From an uncultured Neisseriaceae bacterium (GTDB taxonomy: Bacteria > Pseudomonadota > Gammaproteobacteria > Burkholderiales > UBA11063): a stretch of 64,000 nt of DNA. Every line of letters begins with the position of its first letter. The first letter of the stretch is position 1. The position numbers and the translations under genes are program-made. This document shows positions 3,573-53,800 of the stretch, one piece after another. Location: contig CALMTA010000137.1 of assembly GCA_937872505.1 (NCBI GenBank), positions 132-64,131 on the forward strand. The letters run 5' to 3'. The notes under the pieces were generated by a model. It did no database searches, was not told the DNA's origin, and saw only the letters and a program-made list of their open reading frames with translations.

Positions 3573-3575
3573 AAA

Positions 3576-31346: not shown

Positions 31347-33176
31347 TTGGAAAAATTAAAATTTGGAGTAGGTGGAAATGCTAAACTTGATAAAAATATA
31401 GCTACTTTTAGCTTACTTAGTGGATATAGTTGCCCTGGAGCAGATAAATGTTATACAAAAGTTATTATTGATAACAATGGTAAAAAGAAAATAGAAGATG
31501 GTAAACATCAAGAATTTAGATGTTTTAGTGCTTCACAAGAAGTGTTATATGCAGGAGTCTATAATAATAGAAGTCATAATTATAATATAATATTAAATAT
31601 AGTTAAAGATAAAAGTAAAACTTATAATGAGAAAGTTGAAACTATACATAATTTGTTAAAAATATCTTTACCACAACTCCATAAATGGGATATACTAAGA
31701 CTTCATGTAGGAGGTGATATATTTTGTCTGGAATACTTTGACGCTCTTATACAGCTTGCCAAAGACTATTCTAATAAATTATTTTATGCTTATACTAAGT
31801 CTGTTCATTTATGGGTTAAAAGATTAAATGAAATTCCTGACAATTTTATTTTAACAGCAAGTTATGGTGGAAAATATGATGATTTAATAGATAAGTATAA
31901 CTTAAAATCTGTTAAAGTAGTTATGAGTAATGAAGAAGCTGAAATGTGGAATTTAGAAATAGACCACGATGATAGTCATGCTTATGAAGGTAAAGATAAT
32001 TTTGCACTTTTATTACATGGTTCTCAAAAAAAAGATACTAACGCATCTAAGGCTTTGTCTGCACTTAAAAAAAGTGGTTGGACAGGATATAATCAAAAAT
32101 CAAAAAACATTATGAATAATAGTATGCTTAATTTAACTCAATATGCTTCTTTAAAATATTATCTAATAGAATTAGGATTGGAATTAAATTTAATTAAAGA
32201 TATAAAAAAAATAAATAATCCTAATAAATATATAACTTTTCATCAGGGTGAAGTTATATATTCAGATGTAACAATATTAAACGGAATTACTTTTTTATAT
32301 AATGATTCTGTTTATGATGTATATAGTGTTCTATTGCCAGGAAGTTCTTTGGTTAAATGGATATGTAATTGTGATATTAATATAAAAGATATGTTCACTT
32401 ATAATGATTTTGTTAATATACCTATTAAAGAAGAAATAGCAGATGAGTCAAAAGTCAATGATTATAATTGGTCTTTAATGAAAAATTATTATTTTATTGG
32501 TGGAAGTATGGTGATGTATATTTTTAAAAAATATCTTATTGGAGATAAATTTTATTATGTTCAATATGGCAAATTAGTAGAAATACCTAACAATAATTAT
32601 GATAGAACTGATTTTGATAATTATTGTAATAAACTAGGAATATTACCTAATCCTATTATACAAAAATTATATACAAACTTTATTAGTTATAATGAAGTTA
32701 ATGTATTTCCTGACAATATTGAAGGACGTGATATTTTAAATTATCCTGTTTATAAAGTAGATGAATTAGTTACATATAACGATACTGAGCAGTTAACTAT
32801 TCTTGATATGAACATTAATAGAAAAAAATCAACAGATGAGTTAACTTGGATTTATAGTTTTTATGAATGTAAAGAATGGTATGATGAATCTTTGTTATCA
32901 AAATGTCCTTTTAACAAAAGTAGACCCGATTTAATAAGTCCTTACTTTTTGAGTTCTTTTGGTAAGTTTTTAAATAATAAAAAAAATTTTAATAAAATTA
33001 ATAATGAAGATATTATTAATCAACATTTAATGCAAAATATTATAGCTTACAATCAACAAAGATTATATGGTTTAGACGATAATTTTAAAAATACAGATTT
33101 TTTATTAGAAATTGCACACAATGTTATGTCTTTAGTACACTTTAGAGAAGTTAAAAAAATTAAAGATGGAATTTAA
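31347..33176 (+). CDS. Gp88-like (radical-SAM-related) protein with long unrelated C-terminal extension; TTG start
   Basis: FSLLSGYSCPGADKC, RCFSA, RLHVGGD, FYAYTKS, TASYGG, FALLLHG. Confidence 0.65.
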   Translation: MEKLKFGVGGNAKLDKNIATFSLLSGYSCPGADKCYTKVIIDNNGKKKIEDGKHQEFRCFSASQEVLYAGVYNNRSHNYNIILNIVKDKSKTYNEKVETIHNLLKISLPQLHKWDILRLHVGGDIFCLEYFDALIQLAKDYSNKLFYAYTKSVHLWVKRLNEIPDNFILTASYGGKYDDLIDKYNLKSVKVVMSNEEAEMWNLEIDHDDSHAYEGKDNFALLLHGSQKKDTNASKALSALKKSGWTGYNQKSKNIMNNSMLNLTQYASLKYYLIELGLELNLIKDIKKINNPNKYITFHQGEVIYSDVTILNGITFLYNDSVYDVYSVLLPGSSLVKWICNCDINIKDMFTYNDFVNIPIKEEIADESKVNDYNWSLMKNYYFIGGSMVMYIFKKYLIGDKFYYVQYGKLVEIPNNNYDRTDFDNYCNKLGILPNPIIQKLYTNFISYNEVNVFPDNIEGRDILNYPVYKVDELVTYNDTEQLTILDMNINRKKSTDELTWIYSFYECKEWYDESLLSKCPFNKSRPDLISPYFLSSFGKFLNNKKNFNKINNEDIINQHLMQNIIAYNQQRLYGLDDNFKNTDFLLEIAHNVMSLVHFREVKKIKDGI

Positions 33177-33957: not shown

Positions 33958-36900
33958 ATGAAAAATTGTGGAACTAATTATGTTTCTGTAAATATAGAAA
34001 CTATGAGCAATAGTATCTTTGATACTATTCAAAGAAATATTAACAGTAACTTACCCAGAAGTATTTATAGTTTATTAAAAGAAAATTTAAAAAAACAAGT
34101 TTTAACTGATACTACTTTAAATTTAGAATCTGATAATTTAGAATTAATTCGTTATAAATTCTTTTCTACATATCAAAGAATCTATAATGATTATGTTAAT
34201 GATGGTAAAGCTTTAGATGCTTTTTATATTACTTTATACGATTCTATATATAGTTTAGTGTTAGACAAAATTATAGATATAAAAGACTCTTATAGTATTG
34301 CTATGTATGGAGACATTATAAGTAGTATTATAAACAAGTTTTCCCCTTCCCAAAATGAATTATTAAATTTATCTGAAATTAGTGATTTATCAGAAGATAA
34401 CATAGAAACATTGTTAACAGCTTATAAATCTATTAAAAACAACGAAGAAAGTAATGAAGAATTGTCTTTATTAGATGTAACTGATTTAGAAACTTTAAGT
34501 GCTCCTTTTGATACTTCTGAAGGATTAAATGATTTTAAAGATACTACACCTAATATTTTAAGAAAACTATTTTCATTTATACCTAAAATAACTGTTAAAG
34601 ATGGTAATTTTGTATATAGTTATGAGTCAAAAGAAAAATTATTTTCTTTTTACAACTGGAAAGAAATATATTCTACACTTTTATATATATCTAATGAGGT
34701 TTATAAGCCAAATATAAAAAATGGTAAATTTATAGATACTGTTTTACCTAAAGATTTATCATACGAAGATATTATTTTAGAAATTTTCGAAGTCATTAAA
34801 GATAAAAATCATCCTTATTACAATCATTACTTGAGTTATTTGATAGGATATACTTACAGTGAAAAAGATGGTTATACTAAATTATCTATAAAAAATAATG
34901 AAAATAGTTTTGATGAAATTAGTGGATTAATGTTATCATCTATGATGATAGAAGTTAATTTTGATGAAAAAAATGGTAAAAAAATTAAAGTAAATAGCTT
35001 AAATTTCGATAAAGCTACTGAATCTATTAATTATAGTAAAAGTATTGTTAATTTATTTTTAACAACTTTTGGAAGACATATAGCTAATTGGATAAATATT
35101 GTTCAAAACAATACAGATAACGGAGTTGTTACTGAAGTTTATAATACTAATCAAGAAAATTCTTATACAGTTGTTAAAGACTTATTATTATCAGGATTTA
35201 TTAATAGTAAATATACTGTATTAACTGAGATATCTTCTAATTATAATGTTGAATTAGCTAATAAACTATTAAATAATATAAATAATAGATTAGATACTAT
35301 TGCAGCAATATCAGCCGAAAAAGATGGAAAATCTATTTTTGACCTTAAAAAAGAAGAATTAATAAAGCTAACTGATATAATATTAAGAAAAGAATTTAAT
35401 TTTGTTTTACCTGAAGGTATAAGTAAAGAAACAGTTTATTTTGCTCGTTTTAATAATGATAAAACTTTGTCAAATTCTCTTTTGAAAGATATAATAGAAT
35501 TTTTAACTTATATAACTTCTTTAGACGAAAGTAATAGTACTATTATATTAGAAGACACTGATTTATTTATTAATAAAAATAACTTTAAAAGTTTTATTAG
35601 AAAAACATCTAAAGTTATATTACCAAGAGTTAAGCTAGATTTTATAAGTAAAACTAATAAAAAACTCTATTCTGGTATAAATACTAATCACATATATAAA
35701 GTATATAATGAAATTTTAGGATTAAATATTTCTTATTGGACAGAAGAAAAAAAGAATAATTTAATAAAAGTTTTAGAGTCTTTAAAAAATAGTAGTTATA
35801 CAGACTTATTTAATCTTAATATAATTAATAAATTATTAAGTATAAAGAACAGAGGATTTTTTACGGAAGTTTTAAATCAAATGCAAATTGCTATTTTAGA
35901 TACTGTTTCAGACAATAGAACTACTAGTAATTTTGATGAAGAATTAAATACTAAAAGGATAAAAGCTTTAATGACTGCTTATCAATATAATCCTTTTGTT
36001 GGAACTTCAGAAGAAGAAACTAGTACTGAAACTATTAAGTTTATAATAGTACCATTAATACCTAATTCTGTAAGTAGAATAGTTAGAGTACTAAAAACTA
36101 TAAAATTTTTAGAAATAAAGGGTAATATTTTTGGAAGTACTAATTCTTTAATATCTTTTAATAAAGGCAAATTTGTAATAAACGATGAAAGTTACAATAG
36201 TGATTCTTTATTGCCTTTATACAATGAAAGTTTATCAGAACTTACTCAAGCTGCTCGATTTCAAAAAATGATAAATGATGATGAAAATTTATCTACTTTA
36301 AATGATAAAGAAATTCAAAAAGTAATAAATGGTCTAAATTTTGTATTATATCCTTATCTTAATGATATGGATTATATATATGAAGATGTAAGTGAAAATC
36401 ATCCTTTGTATAAAAGAAATGGTTACACCAGAAAGATAAAAGATTCTATTATTGATTATGTTTTAAATATTAGTACTAAAAATAGTAAACTTAAAGTTCT
36501 TTTGCCTATAAGAAAAAGGTCTTTGGAAAATTTTCTTGATACTATAAATCAGAACTATGAATATTTGTCCAACAATGTTATTTTAGATAATAAATCTGAT
36601 TTTTTAACTACTTCTTACAGAAATAAGTTAATAACGGAAGGAAATGCTTATCCTGTTAATTTTGGAATTAATTTAGAAACTAATAAAGAATTTGATGCTT
36701 TTTATATAAACACATTTAATAAAAGTGTAGGAGAAATAGTTAAAGATTATCAAGGTATAATAGATGCAGTAATTAATAATACAGATATACCATTGGATAA
36801 TTTATATTATTTACCTTTATACAGTAAAGGGAGTAAAGTAATATCTACTTTAGACTCTTTATTTGAAAAAAATATTCCTTTAACTTTAGACCACATTGTT

Positions 36901-39900
36901 AAAAGCATAAATATAGTTAATAACATTTTACAAGGTAAGTTATTATTAGAAATTTCAGAAAGAAAAACTAAAGGAAATGGTTCAGAAATAGAAATAGAAG
37001 AATTATTAAATCTTGAAATAGGGTTTTTTGACAATAAAACTATAGGTGTTTATAATAAACATGAGTTTAATGATGGTTTATTTAAACTGTTAAATTTTGA
37101 ATATACTTTAAACTCAAGATTAACTTTATCAGATCACTTTAAAATGATTTATGGTGAAGCTTTAAACTTTGCTATTTTTGATAAAAATAATAACTTAAAA
37201 ATAGAAGAATATATTTATAATCTTTACAAGAGAAATACTTTAGCACGAGCTCCAAATATACCTCATGGGTCTATAACTGATTCAGGAGAATTTACTAATG
37301 GTTATATTGAAGATTTAGTTGCCCCAAGTAATGAGTTGCGTAAAAATATTATAGTAGCAGAAGATTTTACTCCAGAAATATTTAAAGAAGTAAAACCTTT
37401 ATTATTTCCAGATATAACAGAACAAGACTTATTTCCATATAAGCTAAATGAAAAAGCTGTTAAAGATACTTTAAAAGCTTATAAAAAAATACAAAATAAT
37501 GTAGATAACACTAATTTTTTTGTTTTAAATGGAGAATTAAGTGAAATGTTACAAGATATTTTAGAAAAAAGTATTCAAAAAAATATAAAAAGTATAAGTC
37601 CTTATTTAACTTCATCTAAAAGTTATTTAAAAATAGAACATACTGATGGTTATGATATGGTCACTGTTTCTTTCTTTTTAAAAAGAGCATTATCTTATGG
37701 TTATTTGTCCGAAGAATTAGTTAATAGACTTTTGACAAAAATTAATAAGTCTATTAATAATGCAAAAAGAGCTTTACTAAATGAAGACCTTGTTTCTGTA
37801 GATAAATATCTCGACTATACAATAACTAGTAAAGAAGTATCAGAAATTAAACAAAATTTATTAGAAAACTTAGAAAGTAAATATCAAGATATTATGAATA
37901 TATCTATGATAAAAGATATGAGTTTATCTGATTTAAGTATATTAGTATTAAAAGATGTTTTTGTTGGATTTGTAGATAACCCTAATTTAAATATTAGAGA
38001 ACTTATTTTTGATAAAAATGCTTCAAGAGTATTATTGCCTAATACTATAAAAAATTCTAGATTAGATTTAATTAGAAAATCTATGGAACTTCATAGTATA
38101 GACAGATTATCTCATTTTTCAGCTATAAAAACTAATGTGTCTTTAATTAAAAGAGCTCCTGTAAGTTTTTGGAATTCAGATATAAACTCTACTTTAGATT
38201 CTTTAAAGTGGTTTAATCATGAAGGTTCTGAATTGTATGATAAAATAGTAGCTTTAAATAATGGAGAAACTACAGATAATATATCAGTATTAACTTTGCA
38301 CTCTAATGGTTTTGGAGAACAGACTCCACAATCTGATAGCGATAAATCTATTATGTCTTCACAGGTTAAAGCAGTTATATTTATAGACCAATTAAATAAA
38401 ACATATAATCATAGATATATAAATGGAGAATACGTTGTAGCTAAAAACAGCGGCAAAGATTCCTATAATAGATTTCAAGATTTATGGAAAGAACTATATA
38501 GATATAAATATTTAAAATTTATAAAAAGTATAACTGATCCTGATACTGAAATTATTGATAATAATAAATTATTAAAATATATAGTTAAAAACTTAAGTCA
38601 TAGTCAAAATATATCTCAAAATGATTTAAATTCTTTTTTAACTATTAAAGAAATATTTAAAATTAAATTTCCTAATTCTAATAATTTAGTTGATTCTATT
38701 AATAATTTATTAAGTACTTCTAATGTTAATAGTGAAGAATATACAGAATTAATTAATTATTTTAATAAAGAACAAATAACGGAAGAAGATTTAAATAAAT
38801 TTATGCTTCCTTTATTATTTAGTCCTAATTCTTATAAACTTCAATCTATTTTGAATTCTTTAGTCGAAACAAGATTATCGTCTAAAGGGTTTAAAGGTGT
38901 GTTAACTCCTGATATACAGTATGAAAAAGATATAAATTGGGGAGACTTTAAAAATAGTATAGTTTTTACAGACCCAGAAAAATGGAATAATACTCAACCT
39001 TTAAAAGATATGAGATATGTTAATGGTAAAATAGAGCCTGCGCAAATGGTTGTATCTTGGAATTTTAAATCTTATATTCATAAATATGCTGAAATATTTG
39101 AAGAAGATGGATATTATACAAAAAAAGATATATCTAAAGAAGATATAGAAGATGATTATTTAGAAGATGTTTCTTTAAAATCATTTATAAAAAATAATAG
39201 AAATTCAAATGATAAAGAAGTTATAGATATTATAAATAATATTCCTAAAAAAGGTAAAAATGTTTCTATAAGAAAACACAAAGAAAACAATAGCTATATT
39301 GTTACATATATTAGTAGACAAAAGGAATTAATAAATATAGAAGATTACATAAAAGAAGTTGATGGTAAAAAAATATTAGATACTAAAAATATAGACCCTT
39401 TATTATTACGTGGGCTTAGTAATCGTATTCCTGTTCAGTATCAATCTTCTATAACTTATTTTGAAATAGTAGGATTTATAACTGATTTAGAAAGGTCTAT
39501 TATTATAGCTCCGTCAGACTTTATAGTTAGAATGGGCTCTGACTTTGATATAGACACTCTTTATTCTTTAATTTATAATTTTAATTATGATATAAGAAGT
39601 GGTAAAATAAGTATGGTTAAATATCTTAATGACGACAAAGAATTATATACTAATTATATATTTAGACATGTAGGAAATAAATTAACTACACAATATTATA
39701 AAAAAATATACGAAATAATTAAAGAACAGAAACTTAAAGAAATAACAACTAAAATTATATCTAATATAGACAGTTTAATAAGTAAGCAAGATGCTGAAGA
39801 TATACAAGCTATAAATAGTTTTAATACTTTAAAAGATAAAATTATTTTAGCTGAAAATTCTATTAGCACTTCTTCTGTTGATAACACTTTTAAACATTTA

Positions 39901-42900
39901 ATAAAAATATTAACAGAGTTTAGTAATTTTAAAAGTTTTGGTGGATTAGGTACTATAAATTTATATTCCTTTAATAATGTAGATGTTAAAATAAAAAATA
40001 ATGATGTTGTTAAAAGCATAAATCGTAGATTAAAAAATATAAAGGATAAAAAAGCTAATCCTTTACCAAATGAAGTTTCTACTTTAAATAGTATGTTAGA
40101 AGACAAAAAGTTATTAAAAGAGTTCGTTGATTATAAAAGTATATCTAACATGCTTCAAAGCCTTATAACTATATCTAATTATAGTCAAAAAACTATAAGT
40201 AATTTAACTAATAAAGTTTTATCCAGCCCTACTTCAAAATTTAATATTGCTAAATCTATCTCTAAAAAATATAATAGCTTGTTAAGCTTTGATGATTTTG
40301 TATTAAAAAGTTATTCTTTTAAAAATTCTCCTTTAGCTATAGAAAATGCTATTAAAGATGAGTTTATAACTATTTTAACAGAACCAAGTAATTTAAGACA
40401 AATTATGGCTCCATTAGGATATGGACTTTTTTATAAAGGAAGCCAATCTTTAAATAAAGAAGAGTCTGCAAAAATTAAAAAAGAATTATTATCTAAAACA
40501 AATAACGAATTAAAAGCTTATGTAGACAGCTTATTAGAAAAATATTCTTTAGCAGTTTTAATGGATATTTTTAGAGATAAAACAGTATTTCCTGATCCTT
40601 TAAATTGGTTGTATAATCAAATTTCCTATGACTCTTCAAGAGTAGACTCTGTAATTATTGGGGCTATGGCTTTAAATCAAGTAGGACAATCTTTAATACA
40701 AATTATTAATAAGCCTATTTATTATGACTTTAAAAAATCTATTATAAAAGATAATGTAATTACACTATCTGCAATAGATGAAGATAATATAAAAAAAATT
40801 ATATTTGGTAATAACTATAATGAATCACAATTAGTAAAAGATTTTATTAATAATCATTTTGTATTAAAATTAGAAGAAGGCTCTGTATTTATTTCTTTAG
40901 GGGTAGATGGTCAAAAAATACAAGTACTTCCAAGAATAAGTGCTACTCTTTTAAATTTAAATAGTTATATAGGCTTTATGGCACAAGGTATAAAGTCACA
41001 TTGGATAGTAGCAATAACTAATCAGCCTGCAATAAAAGAATTAAATAATATTTACTTAAACTATATTTCAGACAATACTCCTCGCAAAAAAGCTTTAGAG
41101 TTAGCTTTTTATGATACAATACAACAATACTTTTTTAGTTACTTAGAATTAAACAATTTATCTTTAGAAATAAACAAAACACAAGATATATTTGATTATA
41201 TTAAAAATACTATTATTTCAAGTGTTGAAAATCAAGTAACTTTGTATGATTTATTTAAAGCATTAGCTTTAGGGGAAAGTATAAACAATCCATTAATGTC
41301 TAATTATGAAAAGTCTCAATTTTTAAAAGCACAACTTATATCTTTGTATAATTATATAATGGCTGTGGAACAAGGTCAAGAATTAGGAGATTTTTATAGA
41401 AAAACTAATGTCGATTCTAAAGGTGTTGGATCTTCTTATATATCAGCCGTTGAGTCTTTAAATGCTTTAGAAAGTATATATGAAGGCAGTCCTTTAGTTA
41501 ATATTCAAAGTTTATATGGTGATTATTTTTATATAAAATATAATCCTGTTTTAAACAGTAAAACAGAAGTTAATGGCATTGTAATTTATGATAGATTATA
41601 TGATTTTATTAATGAAATATTAGAAAATAATATATATGCTACAAGTAACACAAGAAGAATTAGATTGTCTTTAATTCACAATGCAGATGAAAGTGTAACC
41701 CTTTCTAATGTTTTAATTAATAAAGAAGAATTTATTTTAAGCATCATAGATAATATAGATTTTAACAGCAATTACTTTTCTTTTTACGAAAAATTATATT
41801 TTGCTAATATTATACTTAAAAGTCAATATAATAATAAATTTTCAAAATTAGAAGAAATATTAAAAGAAGCCAATAAGTTTAATGAATTTGAATCATATAT
41901 ATCATTTACTAAAAAAGATATAGAATTATTTTCAAACCCAGATAATTTTAGTAAAATAACTGATTTTAGATTAGTTCAGTTTTTAACAGAAGAATTTGTT
42001 AAAAAAACATTATTACTAAAAAATATGGAAAACAATATAAAATTTGATAATGTTCTTATTGTTCCTAATAACTATAAATATTATGCATTAAAATACGGTT
42101 CTGATTTAGTTAAAAGAAGCTATAAAGATTTCTTTCCTTATAGCACTAACTTATATAAAGATTTAATAAAAAGATTAAATTTTGTTAATAATGATAATTT
42201 ATATATGGATGAAAATAGAATTAAAATATTTGATAGACATATTTCTTCATATTTAATAGGTCTATTTTCTAGATATTCTTTAGAAAGTAAAAAAGAACTT
42301 CTTGATAAACTTATAGCTTCTTATCAAGAGTTAAAAACTTTAACTTTAAATTCTGATTATAGTTTATTTTTAAAATTTTTAATACCAAGTGTTCAAGACA
42401 ATATAACATACTTAATATTTAACAATAGTGATAGAATTAATTCTGACATAAAATTATATAATATTTATGAAAAAATGTTCTATGACACTGAGCCAAAAAT
42501 AGTAGAATTTGCAGAATTATTGTTAAACTATTGGATGGTATTTAACGGTGCATATACCTCATATAAAAGTATAGGATCTGTTGTTCCTAATAATATTTAT
42601 ATGCAAAATCGTATAGTTTCTTTGTTGAGAAATATTGATTGGAATAATGTTATAAATAATAATGTTATTTTAAAAAATGATATTTCTTATATAATACAGT
42701 TGATACAACATTATCCTACTGAGTTTTTGACTAATAAAAATGTTATAAGAATATCGAAAAATATAGATAATATACTTACTACTTATAATATGCTAGTAGA
42801 TAATGTCTTAGAACCTTATGTTTTTATATTTAAACCTTCATATAAAGAACAGGATTCTGCAGGAAATCCTTTAGAAAGAGAAATTTTTCCTGTAATAAAA

Positions 42901-45900
42901 GCTATTACAAATAGAGATTCTAATAAAAATAATAGATATATATTTATAAATTTAGAATATCTAATGTATAAATTATTTTCATTGAGCGAATATGATTCTC
43001 AAAGTGAGAATAAAGCTAAAGAAATGTTTTTACATTTTTTAATTACTAATAAAAAAACATTAAATGAAACTTTAGGCATTAATTTACAATATTTAATAGA
43101 AAAAATTAAAGATGCTGAAACTTCACTAAAAAAAGTTTATATAAGAATTAATAATTTAGGAACTAATGTTATAGGTCACAAAATATTTGAATTTTCTAAA
43201 AATGAATCAGATGTAGGATTAAGTTTAGTTAATAAAGAGAACTCTTTGTTTAACTTTTTATTTAAAAAACTTATTGAGAATAAATCTAATTTAGATATAT
43301 TTAAAGCTAATATTAAATCTGGTTTAATATCAAGTAGCAATTTTACTAGAAATGAAGATTCTGATAAACAAATGGTAATAACTACTACTGATAGTTTATC
43401 ATTTTTTAAAAAACGAAGTCCTATTACTTTTGGTAAAAATTCTTTTGATACTATAGATAAAATATTTTTACATACTATATTAACTAATCATAGAGGCATA
43501 ACTTCAAATAGTAACTTATATAAAATATCTGAATTATTAACTTTAAACACATCAGAAGCAGATAAAGTAACTACTTGGCAAGAAATAATAAATAAGTTAT
43601 TAATTGTTATTAGTCCTGTAAGTGTTGATGAAACTATTATTAGTAATAATAATTCTTTTTCAGAAGAAAATGTTTTACAACTGGTTAAAGATATATTACA
43701 AAAAGGACCTGTTACTAAAAAATTAATTAGTAATAATTATTTTACTGAAAATGAAATTAATTCTTTAATTAATAATATTGTATATAACTATTCAATTTAT
43801 TTTGATTCTATTTTAAATAGAGATACAGGTTTAGTAAATCATTTAACTCATCCTAAATACGATGAATTAGAATTTGTAATGGAATACGATTTTTTAGATA
43901 GTAAAAAAAGAAGTTTAGTAGGTTATAAAAATCCTGGAGATAAAAATTATTATGGTATATTATTGACTAATTTTAAAGATTCTTTAAAAACTAAAACAGC
44001 TTTTGTATTACCTAAAAATACATTTTTACAAGCTATTAATTCTGATTTTTTTACTGTTAAATCAGGACCAGAAAAACTAAAAAAAGGAGATGTTGTTAAT
44101 ATACAAACTTCCAGAGAAGTTACTAGTAAAAATGACTTTATAGTTAAAAAAGATTTAACTGATAGTAATTCTTTATATGTAACATTAGATAGTTTTGAAG
44201 AAGATGGAATAGAATCTATAGAATTTCCATTAACAGAAGATATTAAAAATATTTATGAAAGATTAAAAAATTCTTCCGACTTAATGGAGCAAATGGAGCT
44301 AAGTGAAACAATTAAAAATTATATAAATTCTGTATTATTAGGAGATAAAAATGTCTTGCAAACTATTGAAACAGACGATAATAACATAGAAATACACATA
44401 GATACTATATCTCCAGATTTTATAGCTATTAAAAATTCTTTTGCTTCTAATGATTTAAAAGTTTCAATATATAGACTAAATAGTATAGAAACTATTAAAA
44501 AAGATAATCCTATAATTTATAACTATTTAATTGAACAATATAACAGAATAAATAGAACATTGGGTCAAAAACCTTTAGACCCTAATGTACCAGCACAAAA
44601 ATATATTTTAGATAATATTTTAAATGAATTATTAAAAGTAAAAAATAGTAATGAGTTAATTATATTTAGTACTATAATTTCTCCAAATAATTATGATATT
44701 TCTAAAACTTATACAGTACAAAATACTAATGATTTTTCTTTAACTTCTTCTAACACTAAATTTGCTTTGTTAGCAGCCATAGAAAAAAATATACCTATAT
44801 TTGTTTATAATAATGTAGAAAACGGTATATATGATATAGGTTGGTATAAATGGGAAAGTACTGTATCTGATTTTGTTAAATCTGAAGTTCCTGTTTTCTT
44901 AAAAAATGTAGCTATATCTGTTGTTAACGAAAACAATTATTTAAACAATAAAGTATTATCAGATTTAATTGATTTTAATACATCTTCTTCTAAAGAAGAT
45001 TATGTAAAAGGTATAAATATTAAAACAGACAAAGAATCGTTTAACTCTCTGGCTAATAGATTAACTAATCCTAATTATTATGCTGATAAATCATTGTTTG
45101 ATGTAGAAACTGAATATAAAGATAAGCAATCTAAAAAAACTCATCCCGAGCTTAATGCAAAAGAAGCATTAAAATATGATATGAACTTAATGTATAATTT
45201 ACAAGTTAAAAAATTTAGACAAAATCCAGAATTAATAGATGAAATAAATGAACAAGGAGGATTAAAGTTTATACAAAACAGTTCACATTGGACACATTAT
45301 ACAGATACAGCAAAAACTATGTTGGACACTGATAAAAATTCAATTAGAAATAGAAATGATAGATGGGTTGGTCAAGGATTAGACAGTAATTTTATTAAAG
45401 TTTTAGCGCAATCTTATACTAAAGTAGCTAAAGAATTAAATAAATTTGTAGAAAGTCCTGTTGATATTAATTCTTCTAAAAAAGATATATTAGTTACAGA
45501 AGAAGATTATACTAAAAATACTCCAGACGATAAGTCCAAAGGATTTTTCTTTACTGAAAATTTACAAGCTTATTTAGCTGCAAGAAATAGATTAAACGAA
45601 GTAGAAGATATTCCTAAAGGATTTCCTATTACATTAAATGTAAAAACTGACAATAATCAAGCAGGTATAAGATATAAATCTAAAGATAAAAGAAACTTAA
45701 ATGCTTTTGCTATAATAAGTAAAAAATACCAACAATCTGATGCTAATTCTTTTGTAGCTAAAGAAGGTCAATTTGCAGATACAGAAGAGGATTTTGAATT
45801 ATTTAAAAAGTATAATACTGAATCTATACAAGAAGCTTTAAGGTATAAAAAACCTTTAGTTATACTTAAAAAAGGTATAGCTACAGGAAAATCGGCTTTA

Positions 45901-48336
45901 CCTTTAAGATTTGCTCAATGGTTAAATGAAGAATTAAAAAGTAAATTAGGTATTCAAGGAATTATAAAAGAAAATACTTCAAGAGATTATGAAGGATTTG
46001 GTATATTTAATTTATTTAAAGTAGAAGCAAAAACATTTAAAAATGAAGAATATTTAATAGCTAAATCAGAAGCAGATAAAAGACCCAATAATACTTTAAT
46101 TCCTCAAAATTTTCAAGGAAAAAAAGATATTAAAGTTAGCGATTTGGTTAAAAAGAATTTAGGTGCAGATGCTTTTTCTATAGACATGATATATTACGGA
46201 TTTCGTACAAGAACTACAAGACAAAAAGAAGAGTTAGATAAATACAATATAAAAGTTGGAAGTTATACTTATATGTTTGGTAAATCTTCTGATGGAACTG
46301 TTAAAAGAATACTTGTAAAAATAACTAAAATAACTAAAGGAATAGATGAAACTTCATGGTTTAAAGAAGGTTGGGATAGTGGAGAAATAAAAAAAGTTAG
46401 AAACTTTAAAGAACCTTATGCTGTAGAATTTGAAAAAGTTGAAGAATTTTTAGCTTCTCCTATAGTTAAAAAAGAATCTGATATAATTTTTGATGTTAAT
46501 GATTTAATAAATCCTCAATATAATAATAAGCCAGAATTTAATAAATTGCCTATTAGAGGAATAAATCCTACATTTACTTATGCAGGTATTGGAAGCAGAG
46601 AAACTCCTGCAAAAATATTAGCTTTAATGACTCAAGTAGCTAAAGAATTAGAAAGTTATTTAACTCTTAATACAGGTAAAAAGAGTGATACTAAAGAAGA
46701 AGGTGCTGATAAAGCTTTTTCAGATGGTACAAAAAGAAAAAATTTATTTTCTCCAAGTAAAGCTAGTGATTTAACAAGAAAAATAGCAGCTGAAATACAT
46801 CCAGATTTAGAAAGAATGGCACAGTCTATATATAATAAATGGGTAAGTACTGTTGGAAAAGATAAAGCTAATATTTATAAACAAGGTGCTATAGATTTAC
46901 AAGCAAGAAATACTTATCAGATATTTGGTGAAAATTTAGATACTCCTGTTGATTTTGTATTATTTTGGGCTAAGGAAACTAAAAATCCTTTAAGACCAGA
47001 AGGGGGTACAGGTCAAGCTGTTGAAATGGCAAGAAGAAAAGGTATCCCTACTATTAATATGGCTGATTCCAATTGGAGAGAACAATTAGATGATATATTA
47101 TCACAAATTAAAAAAGGTAAGCTTACCCCTTCTGCAATAAATATTAATGAAAAATATCAAAAAAGTGATAAATCTCCTGTAGAAGAACTTTTAACTTCTT
47201 TGAGAAATACTAATAAATTTATTATTTTAGATAAACTTATAGACGAACGTTTAATTAAACAGTTATTATCAGATAGTTATTTATCAAGTAAAATGTATGT
47301 TTTAGAAGATAATGGTGATACAGTAAAAATTAGTAAAACTAAACCTACTCCTGCTTTAAATTTAACTATTTCTTTTGGTAAATCATATAATACTATAGTA
47401 GAGATATTAAATGGTAAAACAGAACTTCCTCCTGATTCGGATAAAGAAAAAGAAGCTATATTTATAATTAAAAATTTATTATTAAGTAATAATGAATCTT
47501 TGTTAAAAACAATAGATAGTCAAAAAGATGGTTTAGCATTTTTAGAAAATTCTACTATTAATACTTCTGTATCTAATGAACATAAAAAATATTTTAACAT
47601 TATTAAATCTTATTTAAAATCTGTTTATGCCGAATTAAAAAATATAGATTATATAATACATAGTATTGATTATATTCCATATAAGTTTAAAGACAATTCT
47701 AGTTTTAAAGATGCTACATATATAATGTATGATAAAGAATCTTTAACCACAGGACTTATTTTGAAGTACAGAGATGTATTAAAAATGATTAAAACAATAG
47801 AAAATCCTTTAGACAGTTTTACTAATAGTACAGATAAATTAGAAAATTCTGTAGATATTTATATAAAAGATTTATCTATTTTAGAAAACTTAGACAGTGA
47901 TATTAATTATCATGTGACAGGAGTTAATTATAAGAAAGTTACTAATATTAAGAAGCTTATTAAATCTATTAATAATAAAAAAAATATAACTGTAGAAAAT
48001 TCAGTAAAAAGTTCTATTTTAAAAAGGTATATATCTATTAAAACAAAAATATCTTTAAAGTCTTTAAGTAAAAGAGATATTAATAATATTAGAATATTAG
48101 AACTTCAGCCTGTTAATAAAGGGATAGTTACAGTAAAAAGAGAAAGTGAAATATCAAGTACTTTGTATGAGGATTTTATTACAGCTTTAAATTCTACTTT
48201 ACAAGAAAGTCAGGATATTAGTCAAGAAGATTTAGACAAACTTAAGACAGATTATACTAATTTGTCAGAGGAAGATAAAATTAAATTTAATAATTCAAAT
48301 ATAAACGACACTATTAAATCTTTAATGACATGTTAG
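33958..48336 (+). CDS. giant virion-associated DNA-dependent RNA polymerase (crAss/phi14:2 gp66-like) with C-terminal accessory domains
   Basis: 4792 aa; NRIPVQYQSS at 39421 and MGSDFDIDTL with DFDID at 39541-39555 (residues 1862-1866). Confidence 0.85.
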   Translation: MKNCGTNYVSVNIETMSNSIFDTIQRNINSNLPRSIYSLLKENLKKQVLTDTTLNLESDNLELIRYKFFSTYQRIYNDYVNDGKALDAFYITLYDSIYSLVLDKIIDIKDSYSIAMYGDIISSIINKFSPSQNELLNLSEISDLSEDNIETLLTAYKSIKNNEESNEELSLLDVTDLETLSAPFDTSEGLNDFKDTTPNILRKLFSFIPKITVKDGNFVYSYESKEKLFSFYNWKEIYSTLLYISNEVYKPNIKNGKFIDTVLPKDLSYEDIILEIFEVIKDKNHPYYNHYLSYLIGYTYSEKDGYTKLSIKNNENSFDEISGLMLSSMMIEVNFDEKNGKKIKVNSLNFDKATESINYSKSIVNLFLTTFGRHIANWINIVQNNTDNGVVTEVYNTNQENSYTVVKDLLLSGFINSKYTVLTEISSNYNVELANKLLNNINNRLDTIAAISAEKDGKSIFDLKKEELIKLTDIILRKEFNFVLPEGISKETVYFARFNNDKTLSNSLLKDIIEFLTYITSLDESNSTIILEDTDLFINKNNFKSFIRKTSKVILPRVKLDFISKTNKKLYSGINTNHIYKVYNEILGLNISYWTEEKKNNLIKVLESLKNSSYTDLFNLNIINKLLSIKNRGFFTEVLNQMQIAILDTVSDNRTTSNFDEELNTKRIKALMTAYQYNPFVGTSEEETSTETIKFIIVPLIPNSVSRIVRVLKTIKFLEIKGNIFGSTNSLISFNKGKFVINDESYNSDSLLPLYNESLSELTQAARFQKMINDDENLSTLNDKEIQKVINGLNFVLYPYLNDMDYIYEDVSENHPLYKRNGYTRKIKDSIIDYVLNISTKNSKLKVLLPIRKRSLENFLDTINQNYEYLSNNVILDNKSDFLTTSYRNKLITEGNAYPVNFGINLETNKEFDAFYINTFNKSVGEIVKDYQGIIDAVINNTDIPLDNLYYLPLYSKGSKVISTLDSLFEKNIPLTLDHIVKSINIVNNILQGKLLLEISERKTKGNGSEIEIEELLNLEIGFFDNKTIGVYNKHEFNDGLFKLLNFEYTLNSRLTLSDHFKMIYGEALNFAIFDKNNNLKIEEYIYNLYKRNTLARAPNIPHGSITDSGEFTNGYIEDLVAPSNELRKNIIVAEDFTPEIFKEVKPLLFPDITEQDLFPYKLNEKAVKDTLKAYKKIQNNVDNTNFFVLNGELSEMLQDILEKSIQKNIKSISPYLTSSKSYLKIEHTDGYDMVTVSFFLKRALSYGYLSEELVNRLLTKINKSINNAKRALLNEDLVSVDKYLDYTITSKEVSEIKQNLLENLESKYQDIMNISMIKDMSLSDLSILVLKDVFVGFVDNPNLNIRELIFDKNASRVLLPNTIKNSRLDLIRKSMELHSIDRLSHFSAIKTNVSLIKRAPVSFWNSDINSTLDSLKWFNHEGSELYDKIVALNNGETTDNISVLTLHSNGFGEQTPQSDSDKSIMSSQVKAVIFIDQLNKTYNHRYINGEYVVAKNSGKDSYNRFQDLWKELYRYKYLKFIKSITDPDTEIIDNNKLLKYIVKNLSHSQNISQNDLNSFLTIKEIFKIKFPNSNNLVDSINNLLSTSNVNSEEYTELINYFNKEQITEEDLNKFMLPLLFSPNSYKLQSILNSLVETRLSSKGFKGVLTPDIQYEKDINWGDFKNSIVFTDPEKWNNTQPLKDMRYVNGKIEPAQMVVSWNFKSYIHKYAEIFEEDGYYTKKDISKEDIEDDYLEDVSLKSFIKNNRNSNDKEVIDIINNIPKKGKNVSIRKHKENNSYIVTYISRQKELINIEDYIKEVDGKKILDTKNIDPLLLRGLSNRIPVQYQSSITYFEIVGFITDLERSIIIAPSDFIVRMGSDFDIDTLYSLIYNFNYDIRSGKISMVKYLNDDKELYTNYIFRHVGNKLTTQYYKKIYEIIKEQKLKEITTKIISNIDSLISKQDAEDIQAINSFNTLKDKIILAENSISTSSVDNTFKHLIKILTEFSNFKSFGGLGTINLYSFNNVDVKIKNNDVVKSINRRLKNIKDKKANPLPNEVSTLNSMLEDKKLLKEFVDYKSISNMLQSLITISNYSQKTISNLTNKVLSSPTSKFNIAKSISKKYNSLLSFDDFVLKSYSFKNSPLAIENAIKDEFITILTEPSNLRQIMAPLGYGLFYKGSQSLNKEESAKIKKELLSKTNNELKAYVDSLLEKYSLAVLMDIFRDKTVFPDPLNWLYNQISYDSSRVDSVIIGAMALNQVGQSLIQIINKPIYYDFKKSIIKDNVITLSAIDEDNIKKIIFGNNYNESQLVKDFINNHFVLKLEEGSVFISLGVDGQKIQVLPRISATLLNLNSYIGFMAQGIKSHWIVAITNQPAIKELNNIYLNYISDNTPRKKALELAFYDTIQQYFFSYLELNNLSLEINKTQDIFDYIKNTIISSVENQVTLYDLFKALALGESINNPLMSNYEKSQFLKAQLISLYNYIMAVEQGQELGDFYRKTNVDSKGVGSSYISAVESLNALESIYEGSPLVNIQSLYGDYFYIKYNPVLNSKTEVNGIVIYDRLYDFINEILENNIYATSNTRRIRLSLIHNADESVTLSNVLINKEEFILSIIDNIDFNSNYFSFYEKLYFANIILKSQYNNKFSKLEEILKEANKFNEFESYISFTKKDIELFSNPDNFSKITDFRLVQFLTEEFVKKTLLLKNMENNIKFDNVLIVPNNYKYYALKYGSDLVKRSYKDFFPYSTNLYKDLIKRLNFVNNDNLYMDENRIKIFDRHISSYLIGLFSRYSLESKKELLDKLIASYQELKTLTLNSDYSLFLKFLIPSVQDNITYLIFNNSDRINSDIKLYNIYEKMFYDTEPKIVEFAELLLNYWMVFNGAYTSYKSIGSVVPNNIYMQNRIVSLLRNIDWNNVINNNVILKNDISYIIQLIQHYPTEFLTNKNVIRISKNIDNILTTYNMLVDNVLEPYVFIFKPSYKEQDSAGNPLEREIFPVIKAITNRDSNKNNRYIFINLEYLMYKLFSLSEYDSQSENKAKEMFLHFLITNKKTLNETLGINLQYLIEKIKDAETSLKKVYIRINNLGTNVIGHKIFEFSKNESDVGLSLVNKENSLFNFLFKKLIENKSNLDIFKANIKSGLISSSNFTRNEDSDKQMVITTTDSLSFFKKRSPITFGKNSFDTIDKIFLHTILTNHRGITSNSNLYKISELLTLNTSEADKVTTWQEIINKLLIVISPVSVDETIISNNNSFSEENVLQLVKDILQKGPVTKKLISNNYFTENEINSLINNIVYNYSIYFDSILNRDTGLVNHLTHPKYDELEFVMEYDFLDSKKRSLVGYKNPGDKNYYGILLTNFKDSLKTKTAFVLPKNTFLQAINSDFFTVKSGPEKLKKGDVVNIQTSREVTSKNDFIVKKDLTDSNSLYVTLDSFEEDGIESIEFPLTEDIKNIYERLKNSSDLMEQMELSETIKNYINSVLLGDKNVLQTIETDDNNIEIHIDTISPDFIAIKNSFASNDLKVSIYRLNSIETIKKDNPIIYNYLIEQYNRINRTLGQKPLDPNVPAQKYILDNILNELLKVKNSNELIIFSTIISPNNYDISKTYTVQNTNDFSLTSSNTKFALLAAIEKNIPIFVYNNVENGIYDIGWYKWESTVSDFVKSEVPVFLKNVAISVVNENNYLNNKVLSDLIDFNTSSSKEDYVKGINIKTDKESFNSLANRLTNPNYYADKSLFDVETEYKDKQSKKTHPELNAKEALKYDMNLMYNLQVKKFRQNPELIDEINEQGGLKFIQNSSHWTHYTDTAKTMLDTDKNSIRNRNDRWVGQGLDSNFIKVLAQSYTKVAKELNKFVESPVDINSSKKDILVTEEDYTKNTPDDKSKGFFFTENLQAYLAARNRLNEVEDIPKGFPITLNVKTDNNQAGIRYKSKDKRNLNAFAIISKKYQQSDANSFVAKEGQFADTEEDFELFKKYNTESIQEALRYKKPLVILKKGIATGKSALPLRFAQWLNEELKSKLGIQGIIKENTSRDYEGFGIFNLFKVEAKTFKNEEYLIAKSEADKRPNNTLIPQNFQGKKDIKVSDLVKKNLGADAFSIDMIYYGFRTRTTRQKEELDKYNIKVGSYTYMFGKSSDGTVKRILVKITKITKGIDETSWFKEGWDSGEIKKVRNFKEPYAVEFEKVEEFLASPIVKKESDIIFDVNDLINPQYNNKPEFNKLPIRGINPTFTYAGIGSRETPAKILALMTQVAKELESYLTLNTGKKSDTKEEGADKAFSDGTKRKNLFSPSKASDLTRKIAAEIHPDLERMAQSIYNKWVSTVGKDKANIYKQGAIDLQARNTYQIFGENLDTPVDFVLFWAKETKNPLRPEGGTGQAVEMARRKGIPTINMADSNWREQLDDILSQIKKGKLTPSAININEKYQKSDKSPVEELLTSLRNTNKFIILDKLIDERLIKQLLSDSYLSSKMYVLEDNGDTVKISKTKPTPALNLTISFGKSYNTIVEILNGKTELPPDSDKEKEAIFIIKNLLLSNNESLLKTIDSQKDGLAFLENSTINTSVSNEHKKYFNIIKSYLKSVYAELKNIDYIIHSIDYIPYKFKDNSSFKDATYIMYDKESLTTGLILKYRDVLKMIKTIENPLDSFTNSTDKLENSVDIYIKDLSILENLDSDINYHVTGVNYKKVTNIKKLIKSINNKKNITVENSVKSSILKRYISIKTKISLKSLSKRDINNIRILELQPVNKGIVTVKRESEISSTLYEDFITALNSTLQESQDISQEDLDKLKTDYTNLSEEDKIKFNNSNINDTIKSLMTC

Positions 48337-49813: not shown

Positions 49814-50047
49814 ATGTCAGAACGTATTATAAATGAAAAAGATTATTATAGTTTTGTAGAACAGGCAGAAAATCTTGTTATAAATAATCCTTCTTTAAGA
49901 TTAGGTCAATGTTTATTTAATATATTTTTTGAAAACTATCCTGATATTATTAATAAAATAAAAAACACTGATAAAGATCCTTTTTATAACAATAACAATA
50001 TAGTAAAATTTTTAAATTATATAAAAAAACATGTCAATTATTATTAA
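49814..50047 (+). CDS. hypothetical phage protein
   Basis: LRLGQ.LFN..DPFY motif typical of a small phage family. Confidence 0.55.
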   Translation: MSERIINEKDYYSFVEQAENLVINNPSLRLGQCLFNIFFENYPDIINKIKNTDKDPFYNNNNIVKFLNYIKKHVNYY

Positions 50048-50756
50048 AAATAACATAGAAGTACAAGACATAAGATTAGGAAGAATAGAAGAATTTGACC
50101 AAAGAAGTTTAAACTTTCCTATAACTACCGTTTTAAAAACAGGTGTTAAAAGAAATCGCATATGGAGATGTACTGAAAATTATGACCAAGGAAATATTGG
50201 TGCTTGTGTAGCTTTTTCTATAGCTCACGAATTAGCAGCTACTCCAGTTGAAGTATTAGGTCTGAAAAATAACTATATAATAGAACAAATATATTGGGAA
50301 GCTCAAAAAATAGACCCTTGGGCAGGAGGAGCATATCCATCTGCTAGTCCTAAATATGAAGGTACGTCAGTCTTAGCTGGTGTTAAAATTGCACAAAAGT
50401 TAGGATATTTTGAACAATATAGGTGGGCTTTTGGTTTAAATGATGTACTATTAGGTTTATCAAGTAGTGGACCCTGTGTCTTAGGTATTAAATGGTATTC
50501 TAATATGAGCATTCCTGATAGTAAAAACTTTATAACTCCTACAGGTCAACTACAAGGTGGACATGCTATTTTAGCAAGAGGCGTTGATTGGAATAATAAA
50601 CATGTTATTTTACATAACTCTTGGGGAAAGAATTGGGGAGATAAAGGTAATTGCTATATTAAGTTTGAAGATTTAGAATTATTACTAAAAGATAATGGTG
50701 AAGCAGTATTCTTTAGTCAAAGAAAAAATCCTTATATTTTAAAACCTAAAAAATAG
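50031..50756 (+). CDS. papain-like (C1) cysteine peptidase
   Basis: DQGNIGACVAFS (Q/C), GGHAIL (H), HNSWGKNWGDKG (N). Confidence 0.9.
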   Translation: MSIIIKNNIEVQDIRLGRIEEFDQRSLNFPITTVLKTGVKRNRIWRCTENYDQGNIGACVAFSIAHELAATPVEVLGLKNNYIIEQIYWEAQKIDPWAGGAYPSASPKYEGTSVLAGVKIAQKLGYFEQYRWAFGLNDVLLGLSSSGPCVLGIKWYSNMSIPDSKNFITPTGQLQGGHAILARGVDWNNKHVILHNSWGKNWGDKGNCYIKFEDLELLLKDNGEAVFFSQRKNPYILKPKK

Positions 50757-50841: not shown

Positions 50842-53800
50842 ATGAATTATATAGTAACTAAAAACAAAGAATATTTTCAAAAAATTGGAGAATATTTATA
50901 TTGTAAATTAGAAGATATAGTTTTACCAGATAAAATATCTTTTGATACAGAAACTACTGGATAAATAAAATATAAATATAAACCTAATTTTAATTATTTA
51001 TTATACTTTTAAGCTGTATATTTGTGAATAAATATCACAATTATGCAAGTAGACATAGAAGATAAAAAGAACTTTAAACTAAAAGGAATATATGGAATAG
51101 TAAATATTTTAAATAATAAAATATATATAGGTTCTACTTTAAATTCTTTTTATGATAGGTTCAAAAAGCATAAAAACTTATTATTAAAAAATAAACATCC
51201 CAATAAATATTTACAAAATAGTGTAAATAAACATGGAATAAATAATTTTAAGTTTTTTATAATAGAAATAGAAGATAATATTGAAATTATACGGTTCAGA
51301 GAATCTTTTTACATAGATAATAAAAACAGTGTGAAAAAAGGTTATAATATATCTAATCAAACAACTTGTCCTCCTTCAAACAAAGAAATAAGACTTAAAA
51401 TAAGTGAAACTTTAAAACACAAGCATAAAAATGATTGTGTTTTTAGGCAGGAATTTTTAAAGTTAGCAGAAAAAAGAAAAGGAAAACCTTCTTGGAACAA
51501 AGGTTTAATTTGTTCAAATATCTCCAATGCAAGAAAAAAAATGTTTGATGATATAGAAGTATATGATAATAATATGAAATATTTTGGAACATTTTCAAAT
51601 CCTGTAGAAATAGAAAAATATAGTAAATCTAAAAAAAATGATTTACCTATACCTATTCTTGTAGAACATTTACTTTTTAATCATAAAGATAAAAGTAAAA
51701 AAAGGATTAAAAAATATTTCGTAAATAATATTATTTATTCTCAAAATATACACAGAGCCATAAGAAACAATACTACTTACAAAGGTTTATTTTTTAAAAA
51801 AGTCCCTTATAATAGTAATGTTATAAGAAAAGAGGATGAATTGCTGGAAAAGCTGGAATGCCAATCAGCAGCCAAGCTATAAATACATTTATAGAAGGTT
51901 CAACGACTACCTGAGCAATAAAGTTTGCTTAATAACAGGAAGTAGCTTATCGTAATGTTTAAGTGAAAAAGCGTCCTCCATCCTTATAGGATGATGATAT
52001 AGTCTGGTCTTATATTAATAAAAAGTATAAGTTAACACAACGTAGATTCTAAGAAACATGATATATTTTGTGCGCAAATAGGTACAGGTAAAGATAATTT
52101 TTTGATTAAATTGTATGATGATGATTATGTTATAAAAGATTTAATAGAATTAATAAAAAACAAAACTTTAGTTATTCATAATGCTTTATTTGATTTAGAG
52201 TTTTTATATAAACATAATTTTTATCCTACAGATATTAAAGATACAATGCTAGCTTCTAAAATTATTTACAACGGTGATTATTTTAATATGCAGCATGATT
52301 TTAAATCCTGTATGAAAAGAGAATTAAACATAGAATATGATAAAACAGAACAAAAAAATATATCTACTGTTAAGCTATCTCAAAGTTCTACTATTTCTTA
52401 CAGTTTCAATGATGTAGACAAATTGCTTGAGTTACATGATAAATTGGAAAATAGTATAATAAAAAATAATCAAACGGCAACTTATAATTTACATTGTAAA
52501 TTTATCAGAGCTTTAGCTTATATAGAAAGATGTGGATTACCTATTTCAGTTAAAAAATGGAAAAATAAAATAAAAGAAGACTTACGTTTATCTTTAAAAT
52601 ATGAAAAAGATATAATTAAATATATATATAAAAATATACCTGAGTTTAGACAAAATCAATTAGATTTATTTGATAATAAAGAAACAGTTAAAGTTTTATT
52701 AACTTCTCCATTACAAATGCTAAAGGTTTTTAACAAGCTTAATATTAATACTAAAGATAAAGATAATAAAGACAGTATAAATGAAGCTGTTATTTCTAAA
52801 ACTAAACACGAGTTTGTTGATTTGTGGTTAAAGTTTCAAGAAAGTAAACACAGAGTAACTACCTTTGGTGAAAATATATTATCTCAAGTAGAAAATGATA
52901 GATTATATACTAACTTTAATCCTATGGTAGATACTGCTCGATTATCAACAAGAAAAGGATATATAAATTTTTTAAACTTTCCTGGAGATTTAAACACAAG
53001 AAATTGTTTTGAAGTAAGAGAAGGTAATAAATTAATAGTTTGTGACTTTTCAGGTCAAGAAACAATTTTAGCAGCTGATTTAAGTAATGATGAAGCTATG
53101 GTAGATTCTGTAGTTCATGGTAAAGATTTACATTGTGCTTTTGCTCGTGTTTTATATCCTGAAATAAAAGATTTAGATGACGAAGATATTATGAAAAATC
53201 ATAAGGATAAAAGAAATGCTGCTAAAGTTCCAAGGTTTGCGTTAAACTAATTTGACCGTTTATATAGTAATATATAAAATGAATTCTGTGAATTGTCTGA
53301 GAAGCCCTAAAAAGGGTAATCAGCAGCCAAGCTTTGTAGAAATACATTGAAGGTTCAACGATCAACACGTACTAACTAAACAGATAATGCTGTAGTTTAT
53401 GAGGTGACAAGAGCGCAGAACACCCTACTCTTTACAAGAGGGGTGATGATATGATCTGAGCTACGCATATATATAAAAGCGTAGAAGTTAGGATAAAGAG
53501 CCTAACGATAACAAAACTGTCAATATGGAGGATCGGCATTTACAATACATGAAAGTAAAGGAATACCTTTAGATGAAGCTTATGAAATAGAGAAAGCCTT
53601 TAAAGAGCTACATAGTGGGTTTTATTCTTGGGGTGAAGTTGAATATCAAAAAGCAATTAAAACAGGCTATATAGTCTCCTCTGACGGTTGGAGATTAAAA
53701 TTACCTAAATATGATTACTTTAAAAGTTTATTATCTCAAATATCTAATATAAGCAAAAATGAATGGCTATTATATAGAGATGGAAAATCTGAATTTACAG

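Follow-up and report, generated by a model that had tools for sequence, protein, structure and literature searches.

The viruses of the human gut are dominated by crAss-like phages, which are frequently met in other habitats as well. In this work, we analyzed a stretch of 64,000 nucleotides (nt), hereafter the window, from contig CALMTA010000137.1 (assembly GCA_937872505.1, positions 132 to 64,131), which was binned with an uncultured Neisseriaceae bacterium, and we focused on a giant open reading frame (ORF), P0001, that on sequence grounds is a homologue of the crAss-type virion RNA polymerase (RNAP) in one polypeptide, followed by a train of five C-terminal modules designated S1 to S5. We would give about even chances to P0001 being a polyvalent, virion-delivered payload carried on a polymerase, whose added domains would act on modified nucleic acids or nucleotides.

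Polypeptides that combine several unrelated enzymatic domains have been described from phages and conjugative elements as polyvalent proteins; those of phages are injected proteins, predicted to arrive alongside the DNA when infection is just beginning, and their domains are shuffled between relatives (Iyer, Burroughs, Anand, de Souza and Aravind, 2017; PMC5512222). P0001 likewise joins several unrelated domains that are shuffled between relatives, and its early delivery would be a further resemblance; the 2017 study makes no mention of NADAR, ASCH, SLOG or crAss-like phages, and the zincin peptidase typical of polyvalent proteins has no HExxH counterpart in P0001, the carrier here being a two-barrel crAss-type virion polymerase. 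The crAss-like virion RNAP and cargo proteins (phi14:2 gp66; crAss001 gp47, gp49 and gp50) are giant proteins of the "transcription block" and are expected to be ejected capsid cargo (PMC10172136, PMC7886860), with polymerase-associated giants being reported as cargo that is ejected and an extrusion route being proposed for that of crAss001 (PMC10172136). P0001 shares their DxDxD region and would be expected to travel as cargo likewise, and it joins the polymerase and its add-ons in one chain of 4792 amino acids (aa); none of the five modules is described in these two papers, Yutin et al. (2021; PMC7886860) naming "large, multidomain proteins" only. Regarding the modules themselves, DarT1 is neutralized by phage NADARs (PMC11825919), including AdfN (T4 gene 30.3); S2 is homologous to NADARs and retains their catalytic Glu and the His of the phage ones (PMC11825919, PMC11543638). 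AdfN proteins are free-standing early products, whereas in S2 the domain forms part of a virion protein. Viral SLOG and NADAR domains were found to co-occur and to be fused in one protein, as they are here, in a survey by Iyer, Burroughs, Anantharaman and Aravind (2022; PMC9503650), in which SLOG domains were associated with NADAR, Macro and DUF4326; P0001 has neither Macro nor DUF4326, and the survey does not deal with crAss-like phages. The idea of a polyvalent payload is already known, and the new part is the crAss-type polymerase as the carrier: the strategy would be that of polyvalent proteins (PMC5512222) on a new vehicle, and it fits the SLOG-NADAR associations seen in DNA viruses (PMC9503650). 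In the literature that we searched, these modules were not described on a crAss-type polymerase, and crAss-like phages were not relevantly linked with NADAR, nor with AlkB or polyvalent proteins on a polymerase.

The region flagged in a preliminary description of this DNA falls within the last quarter of P0001, which is one unbroken frame on the forward strand with the following parts:

33958..48336, + strand: giant ORF P0001, homologue of the crAss-type virion RNA polymerase extended at its C terminus by the module train, 4792 aa
39337..39672, + strand: RNA polymerase catalytic region, aa 1794-1905, from tblastn and motif
44377..44967, + strand: S1, degenerate SLOG-like unit, aa ~3474-3670, from homologue alignment and hhalign to S5
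45010..45447, + strand: S2, divergent phage-type NADAR-like module, aa 3685-3830, from profile-profile comparison
45493..46002, + strand: S3, DUF7831-like alpha/beta domain, aa 3846-4015, from an AlphaFold2 model and profiles
46141..46446, + strand: S4, predicted ASCH-fold module, aa 4062-4163, from an AlphaFold2 model and PDB matches
46540..47115, + strand: S5, SLOG or "DprA-like" module, aa 4195-4386, from phrog_768
47116..48333, + strand: orphan C-terminal region, 406 aa after S5, rich in K, I, L, S and N, with no family

Since stop codons are frequent by chance at the G+C content of the window DNA (~22%), a frame of 4792 codons must be coding; an assembly artefact as the source of the long frame was considered and excluded, because at least two independent public assemblies encode the identical 4792-aa protein, on at least six contigs in all. 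The DxDxD catalytic motif of the polymerase is present as DFDID at aa 1862-1866 (nt 39541-39555), and in a tblastn search with aa 1601-2200 as the query, residues 1794-1905 matched the "Catalytic RNA polymerase subunit" of phi14:2 (g066/gp66), together with the "putative RNAP catalytic subunit" of crAss002 and Rudgehvirus, with expectation values (E) of 4e-9 to 4e-6 across these matches. The motif and the matches to phi14:2 gp66 and the crAss002 RNAP therefore identify the carrier as a homologue of crAss-type virion polymerases, in agreement with the preliminary description. The gp66 protein of phi14:2 is reportedly of about 2180 aa and carries no such tail. No Pfam family matched the whole 4792-aa protein, and only S5 was matched among the PHROG families.

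The limits of the modules were obtained from the distribution of homologues along the tail. A query of aa 3500-4400 against 5.8 billion proteins retrieved 148 giants of 2.6-6.2 thousand residues, each matching parts of the tail and never the whole query, and a HMMER scan of aa 3501-4200 against 1.84 billion representatives retrieved 201 further relatives, many of which are small stand-alone proteins with a single module. Homologue coverage forms five blocks separated by troughs, which differ from the boundaries proposed earlier by a few tens of bases at most, and all the motifs quoted in the preliminary description are found in the sequence; from the five-domain train that it proposed (SLOG-like, NADAR-like, macro-like, ASCH-like, SLOG), four assignments stand and the macro domain gives way to a DUF7831-like one. 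Direct family searches added little: segment-wise Pfam searches at E up to 10 returned nothing useful for the window copies of the modules, PADLOC and NCBIfam gave no credible match on six tail segments, and profile searches of PDB sequences with the alignments of S2, S3, S4 and S5 yielded matches at chance level only.

To place this arrangement among its relatives we used a census of 145 giant proteins from metagenomes, each of 2500 residues or more, which shows that payload modules on polymerase giants are widespread. A homologue of the polymerase motif region occurs in 129 of the 145, and the five modules, counted together with canonical NADAR, appear in 43 different orders or combinations. 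The modules lie mostly C-terminal to the polymerase and at times N-terminal to it; only P0001 has all five. As in polyvalent proteins, it joins disparate domains, here five modules and a polymerase, from a repertoire that is shuffled among relatives. Furthermore, the giants of relatives carry canonical NADAR, AlkB-type PF13532, PIF1/AAA_30 helicase, RNase H, PF18760 and other domains.

A second trait common to these proteins is the scarcity of cysteine. Of the 4792 aa of P0001, 2 are Cys (0.04%), one being residue 4 and the other the final residue, compared with 1.18% in the other ORFs of the window; the related giants have 399 in 607,281 residues (0.066%), and the modules within giants have a single one in 11,314 residues. 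In small proteins, S2, S3 and S4 modules have 0.24-0.31% Cys, and S1 modules none in 270 residues. Because Cys is nearly absent from both the body and the modules of the giants, polymerase and payload appear to be under one unusual constraint, and this scarcity may reflect packaging of the polypeptide followed by extrusion in a partly unfolded state and refolding. Two other ORFs of the window show a comparable scarcity, each with 1 Cys: those at 58537 (1263 aa) and 62328 (557 aa).

Among the modules, S3 departs most from the preliminary description, in which it had been taken for a macro-like domain. The Macro family (PF01661) had no match in S3 at E up to 10 or in its 28 family members, and a search of the entire assembly at E up to 1 was likewise empty. 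An AlphaFold2 model built from a 28-sequence alignment was of high confidence (predicted local distance difference test, pLDDT, 95.6; predicted template modeling score, pTM, 0.91), and when it was compared by Foldseek with 350,542 PDB chains, the best of 216 matches at E<=10 had E 0.57, with template modeling (TM) scores not above 0.25 and no macro structure among the best 50 matches listed. These null profile searches and the lack of a macro fold match exclude the macro-domain reading, an attractive call that was wrong and is here corrected. Instead, profiles and the predicted structure place S3 in the phage family DUF7831 (PF25176): this family is matched by 5 of the 28 members (best E 5e-5), the S3 profile aligns with a canonical DUF7831 module (itself matching PF25176 at E 7e-39) with an hhalign probability of 94.9% (E 4.6e-8), and three of the four best matches of the model in BFVD are named DUF7831, with probabilities of 0.87-1.0 across the four; the best-ranked of them, from a crAss-like phage, takes its name from another domain. 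The window copy, which has an insertion of ~25 residues after the first motif, gave no direct PF25176 match by itself, being too divergent. Residues T3866, N3868, R3905, N3915 and Q3925 are invariant in the family, and a K, a second K, a D and a third K are nearly so; since these conserved residues are polar, they suggest a ligand-binding or active site. In deposited phage genomes, S3 homologues were found in just two crAss-like phages, again with the module at the end of a giant protein, as in cr55_1 (Suoliviridae), where it closes a giant of 4551 aa; in one metagenomic phage S3 is a separate gene of 307 aa within the giant-gene block. Our literature search found no paper on DUF7831, and this module, confidently folded in the model and with no solved relative, would be the most original element of the finding. 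The canonical DUF7831 module mentioned above lies in the same bin (G000:C148:31231-31569), inside a frame of 6506 aa on a 59-kb contig, which suggests a second crAss-like phage with a yet larger giant protein.

S2 is best described as a minimal, divergent phage-type homologue of NADAR, with activity predicted at most. The proposal that it is NADAR-like is borne out by profile-profile homology and not by a Pfam match of the window copy; PF08719 was weakly matched by 3 of 15 family members (E 0.005 or weaker). For the comparison, nine canonical NADAR modules were cut from related giants, all nine passing PF08719 (best E 3e-17), and the S2 profile aligned with them at 92.2% in hhalign (E 5.8e-7, 73 columns). 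Within the S2 family the superfamily Glu (E3717), H3777 and W3803 are invariant, and H3777 falls in the column of the LTHTQ His, itself invariant in the canonical modules; phage NADARs have a His in place of the third catalytic residue (PMC11543638, PMC11825919). In the NADAR of E. coli C7, E88 and K95 are catalytic, the Lys seven residues after the Glu being essential (PMC11543638). Distant S2 members retain a Lys at this +7 position, a close subgroup has Ala at +7 and Lys at +4, and in the window copy Lys is found at +4 and +6 and Gln at +7. This Gln and the missing central helical hairpin speak against activity of S2. An insertion of 17 residues, THYTDTAKTMLDTDKNS, is located directly after H3777 (aa 3779-3795, nt 45301-45351) and is absent from all 14 aligned relatives.

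For S4, the predicted structure (AlphaFold2, pLDDT 93.7) confirms an ASCH/PUA-like beta-barrel fold, as the label ASCH-like had anticipated. Its top six PDB matches are all ASCH proteins, among them 3s9x and 1t62, with probability 1.0 and TM scores of 0.54-0.61, and the best is E. coli YqfB (9kyh/9kyf; E 2e-4, TM 0.6); the ASCH family PF04266 had no match in the window copy and was weakly matched by 1 of 18 family members (E 0.0096). YqfB is an ASCH-domain N4-acylcytidine amidohydrolase with a Lys21-Thr24-Glu74 triad and Arg26 (PMC6972931). S4 is 21% identical to it, and both have a G-x-(K/R)-x-x-T-x-R motif and a conserved Glu, which in S4 are G4081-x-R4083-x-x-T4086-x-R4088 and E4137, with the same spacing as Lys21, Thr24, Arg26 and Glu74, although Arg replaces the essential Lys; unlike YqfB, S4 is embedded in a phage giant. 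The residues invariant in the S4 family are G, R, R, W and E. An amidohydrolase activity of S4 is possible, though far from certain.

The train begins and ends with SLOG-type units. S5 is the sole part of the tail recognized directly by a family library, matching phrog_768 ("DprA-like DNA recombination-mediator protein") with E 7e-38 to 7e-40, one alignment (E 6.8e-38) spanning 181 of 191 profile positions, and it displays the SLOG-type motifs YAGIGSR, EGADKAF, ARNT.Q and GGTGQAVEMA...GIP. It is common to 109 giant relatives, and when the tail was searched by tblastn 1168 deposited phage records were matched; among the matches listed, all fall on S5 except four cr55_1/cr1_1 records, and they are often annotated as DprA-like. 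From the earlier label, SLOG/DprA-like, the phage family assignment holds and a canonical DprA is not supported: PF02481 had no match in S5, and 116 S5 modules compared with ~29 bacterial DprA domains (one of them weak) gave an hhalign probability of just 18% (E 0.0013), limited to the GSR...GxD region. A canonical DprA had no support for S1 either. The cpYpsA family (PF12694) was also tried for S5 and found no support; its model matches two other contigs of the assembly but not the window contig, and hhalign between S5 and the cpYpsA of the same assembly gave 0.2% in a comparison of low power. The label that can be supported from the profiles is SLOG-like, phrog_768. Regarding S1, it reaches farther upstream than previously marked, to about aa 3474, its well-aligned C-terminal half being aa 3554-3670 (nt 44617-44967). 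Its relatives have a full domain with the motifs HSGGAxGxD, RN..Q, SDA, GGTGYAV, KPVYVF and a terminal FAGIGTR, and the S1 and S5 families are homologous (hhalign 96.1%, E 3e-9, 111 columns); in the window the hydrophobic pattern stays and all the motifs are gone, and thus the description of S1 as a degenerate SLOG-like unit was correct. The S1 family (e.g., P0265, aa 100-290) starts at the GGAxGxD loop and has at its end the FAGIGTR strand, which resembles the first strand of S5, YAGIGSR; the S1 family looks like a circular permutation of an S5-type SLOG domain.

Beyond S5, the orphan end of 406 aa had been overlooked in the preliminary description. It has no homologue past about aa 4460 among the relatives, and PHROG, PADLOC, NCBIfam and Pfam gave no convincing match in it, the sole PADLOC match being to PtuB at E 9e-4 and 16.9 bits.

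Taking these results together, the mechanism that we favor is the following. The whole polypeptide would travel inside the capsid as cargo and be extruded into the cell either ahead of the DNA or together with it, as proposed for the polymerase proteins of phi14:2 and crAss001; its modules would then be in the cell ahead of phage gene expression, placed at time zero beside the polymerase and the incoming genome. There their substrates would be modified nucleic acids or nucleotides: bases would be freed of ADP-ribose by NADAR, ASCH would have N4-acylated cytidine or RNA as a target for binding or deacylation, and ribosyl-nucleotide ligands or single-stranded DNA would be bound or cleaved by SLOG, perhaps together with DUF7831, so that the modules may jointly keep the first template and its transcripts usable despite host defences. 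The general proposal of a pre-made payload is plausible, being supported indirectly by the homology to virion-packaged polymerases, the shuffling of modules in the 145 giants and the lack of Cys common to all parts. The more specific argument made previously, which rested on the reversal of DarT-type modification by NADAR and macro domains, fared worse, since the macro domain is absent and S2 is a NADAR homologue that keeps the Glu and His with its Lys out of register. We consider the DarT-specific version weak, because of these two observations and because DarT is rare in the order of the putative host, where it was detected in 10 of 151 genomes, and in 0 of 4 of the host genus.

Several observations, including this rarity of DarT, argue against such a virion-borne payload. 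S1 has lost every motif of its family, with only the hydrophobic pattern kept; S2 has no direct match to PF08719, lacks the central helical hairpin of canonical NADARs and has a Gln (Q3724) at +7 from the Glu, where the catalytic Lys is expected; S3 belongs to a family with no known function or solved structural relative; S4 has an Arg (R4083) at the position of the essential Lys21 of YqfB; and S5 has its glycine-rich loop replaced by an insertion, with no demonstrable identity as DprA or cpYpsA. Further, the zincin processing motif HExxH is absent from all 4792 aa, we infer packaging and ejection of P0001 from the virion proteomics of crAss001 (PMC10172136) and from the Cys-free composition, and the phage-host assignment comes solely from binning. 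The window contig (C137) was placed in a bacterial bin of 2.16 Mb and 316 contigs, in which a normal bacterial dprA is found on C260.

A related proposal goes further, and we regard it as a minority possibility worth keeping in view: the C-terminal, sometimes N-terminal, end of the polymerase would be a hypervariable payload slot whose swapped enzymes clean the template in cis, DUF7831 being a new enzyme fold. Under this proposal NADAR would remove ADP-ribose, the AlkB of relatives would remove alkyl groups and ASCH the N4-acyl group of cytosine, with SLOG and DUF7831 handling ribosyl-nucleotide adducts or signals; being tethered to the polymerase on the first DNA, these enzymes would perform a transcription-coupled removal of defence-imposed base modifications before phage expression. 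If a packaged polymerase routinely carries swappable enzymes, its add-on repertoire (NADAR-like, ASCH, SLOG and DUF7831 here; AlkB, helicase, RNase H and ART in relatives) would constitute a readable catalogue of the defences met, and would also be a source of compact, Cys-free, refoldable enzyme modules, including DUF7831, which has no structural relative in the PDB.

Less probable is a payload directed not at DNA adducts but at diffusible immune signals or toxic nucleotides, such as cyclic ADP-ribose isomers and ADP-ribose phosphates, with SLOG and NADAR binding or cleaving ribosyl-base bonds and thereby silencing Thoeris-like systems at entry; we consider this unlikely. According to the survey of viral NAD/ADP-ribose domains, the main targets of SLOG and NADAR in phages would be ADP-ribose derivatives of low molecular weight, and the two domains are often fused (PMC9503650), and P0001 holds two SLOG-type units and one NADAR-like unit in a phage whose putative host belongs to an order where DarT is rare. 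However, every phage NADAR that has been tested acts on DNA adducts (PMC11825919), the AlkB, helicase and RNase H of relatives, together with ASCH, point to nucleic acids, and a tether to the polymerase fits a DNA- or RNA-bound substrate better than a diffusible one.

The remaining explanations draw in part on the neighbouring genes, which are listed here:

28973-30109, + strand: PARP ORF, ~4 kb upstream of the giant gene (PF00644, E 3.2e-17; weak WGR, phrog_23333)
31347-33173, + strand: ORF just upstream of the giant-gene block (Pfam GP88, PF17338, E 2.5e-32)
50031-50753, + strand: papain/cathepsin-B-like cysteine protease ORF, 1.7 kb downstream (phrog_16701; PDB 3ois, E 8.5e-11)
51043-51882, + strand: ORF of 279 aa, downstream (GIY-YIG domain per the contig annotation)

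The modules could serve an ADP-ribosylation of the phage itself, with the NADAR-like and SLOG modules as erasers or recyclers of the products of a WGR-PARP in a writer-eraser pair, and not as counter-defence. The PARP ORF shares its gene block and its strand with the giant gene, and a role as the writer partner of the NADAR-like or SLOG modules is possible; we nevertheless attach little probability to this explanation of the train, given that the modules ride on 129 polymerase giants in genomes without a demonstrated PARP, and that the known NADAR substrates are base-linked ADP-ribose and not PARP-type products (PMC11543638). Similarly improbable in our judgement is that the train is cleaved off, having a late function in the producing cell or being discarded, and is never packaged. 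The downstream papain/cathepsin-B-like protease would be the cutter, and it is a candidate processing enzyme for the giant polyprotein; the occurrence of the modules as separate genes in some relatives also agrees with a detachable train. Against this, no cleavage site is known, and the Cys-free composition spans the whole train and the same modules in all giants, which suggests that the train is under a constraint common with the packaged body. Finally, a largely non-catalytic train, made of decayed enzyme folds acting as spacers, as adaptors for packaging or ejection, or as handles by which the polymerase binds DNA or RNA, would account for the motifs lost from S1, the replaced loop of S5, the substitution in S2 and in S4 of a residue essential in characterized relatives, and the lack of direct Pfam matches in the window copies, but it is hardly to be expected when polar residues are invariant across 15-28 diverse members per family, a pattern typical of active or ligand-binding sites, and when the modules are also found as stand-alone genes. 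With respect to the other downstream neighbour, a homing endonuclease would fit the ORF of 279 aa with the GIY-YIG domain.

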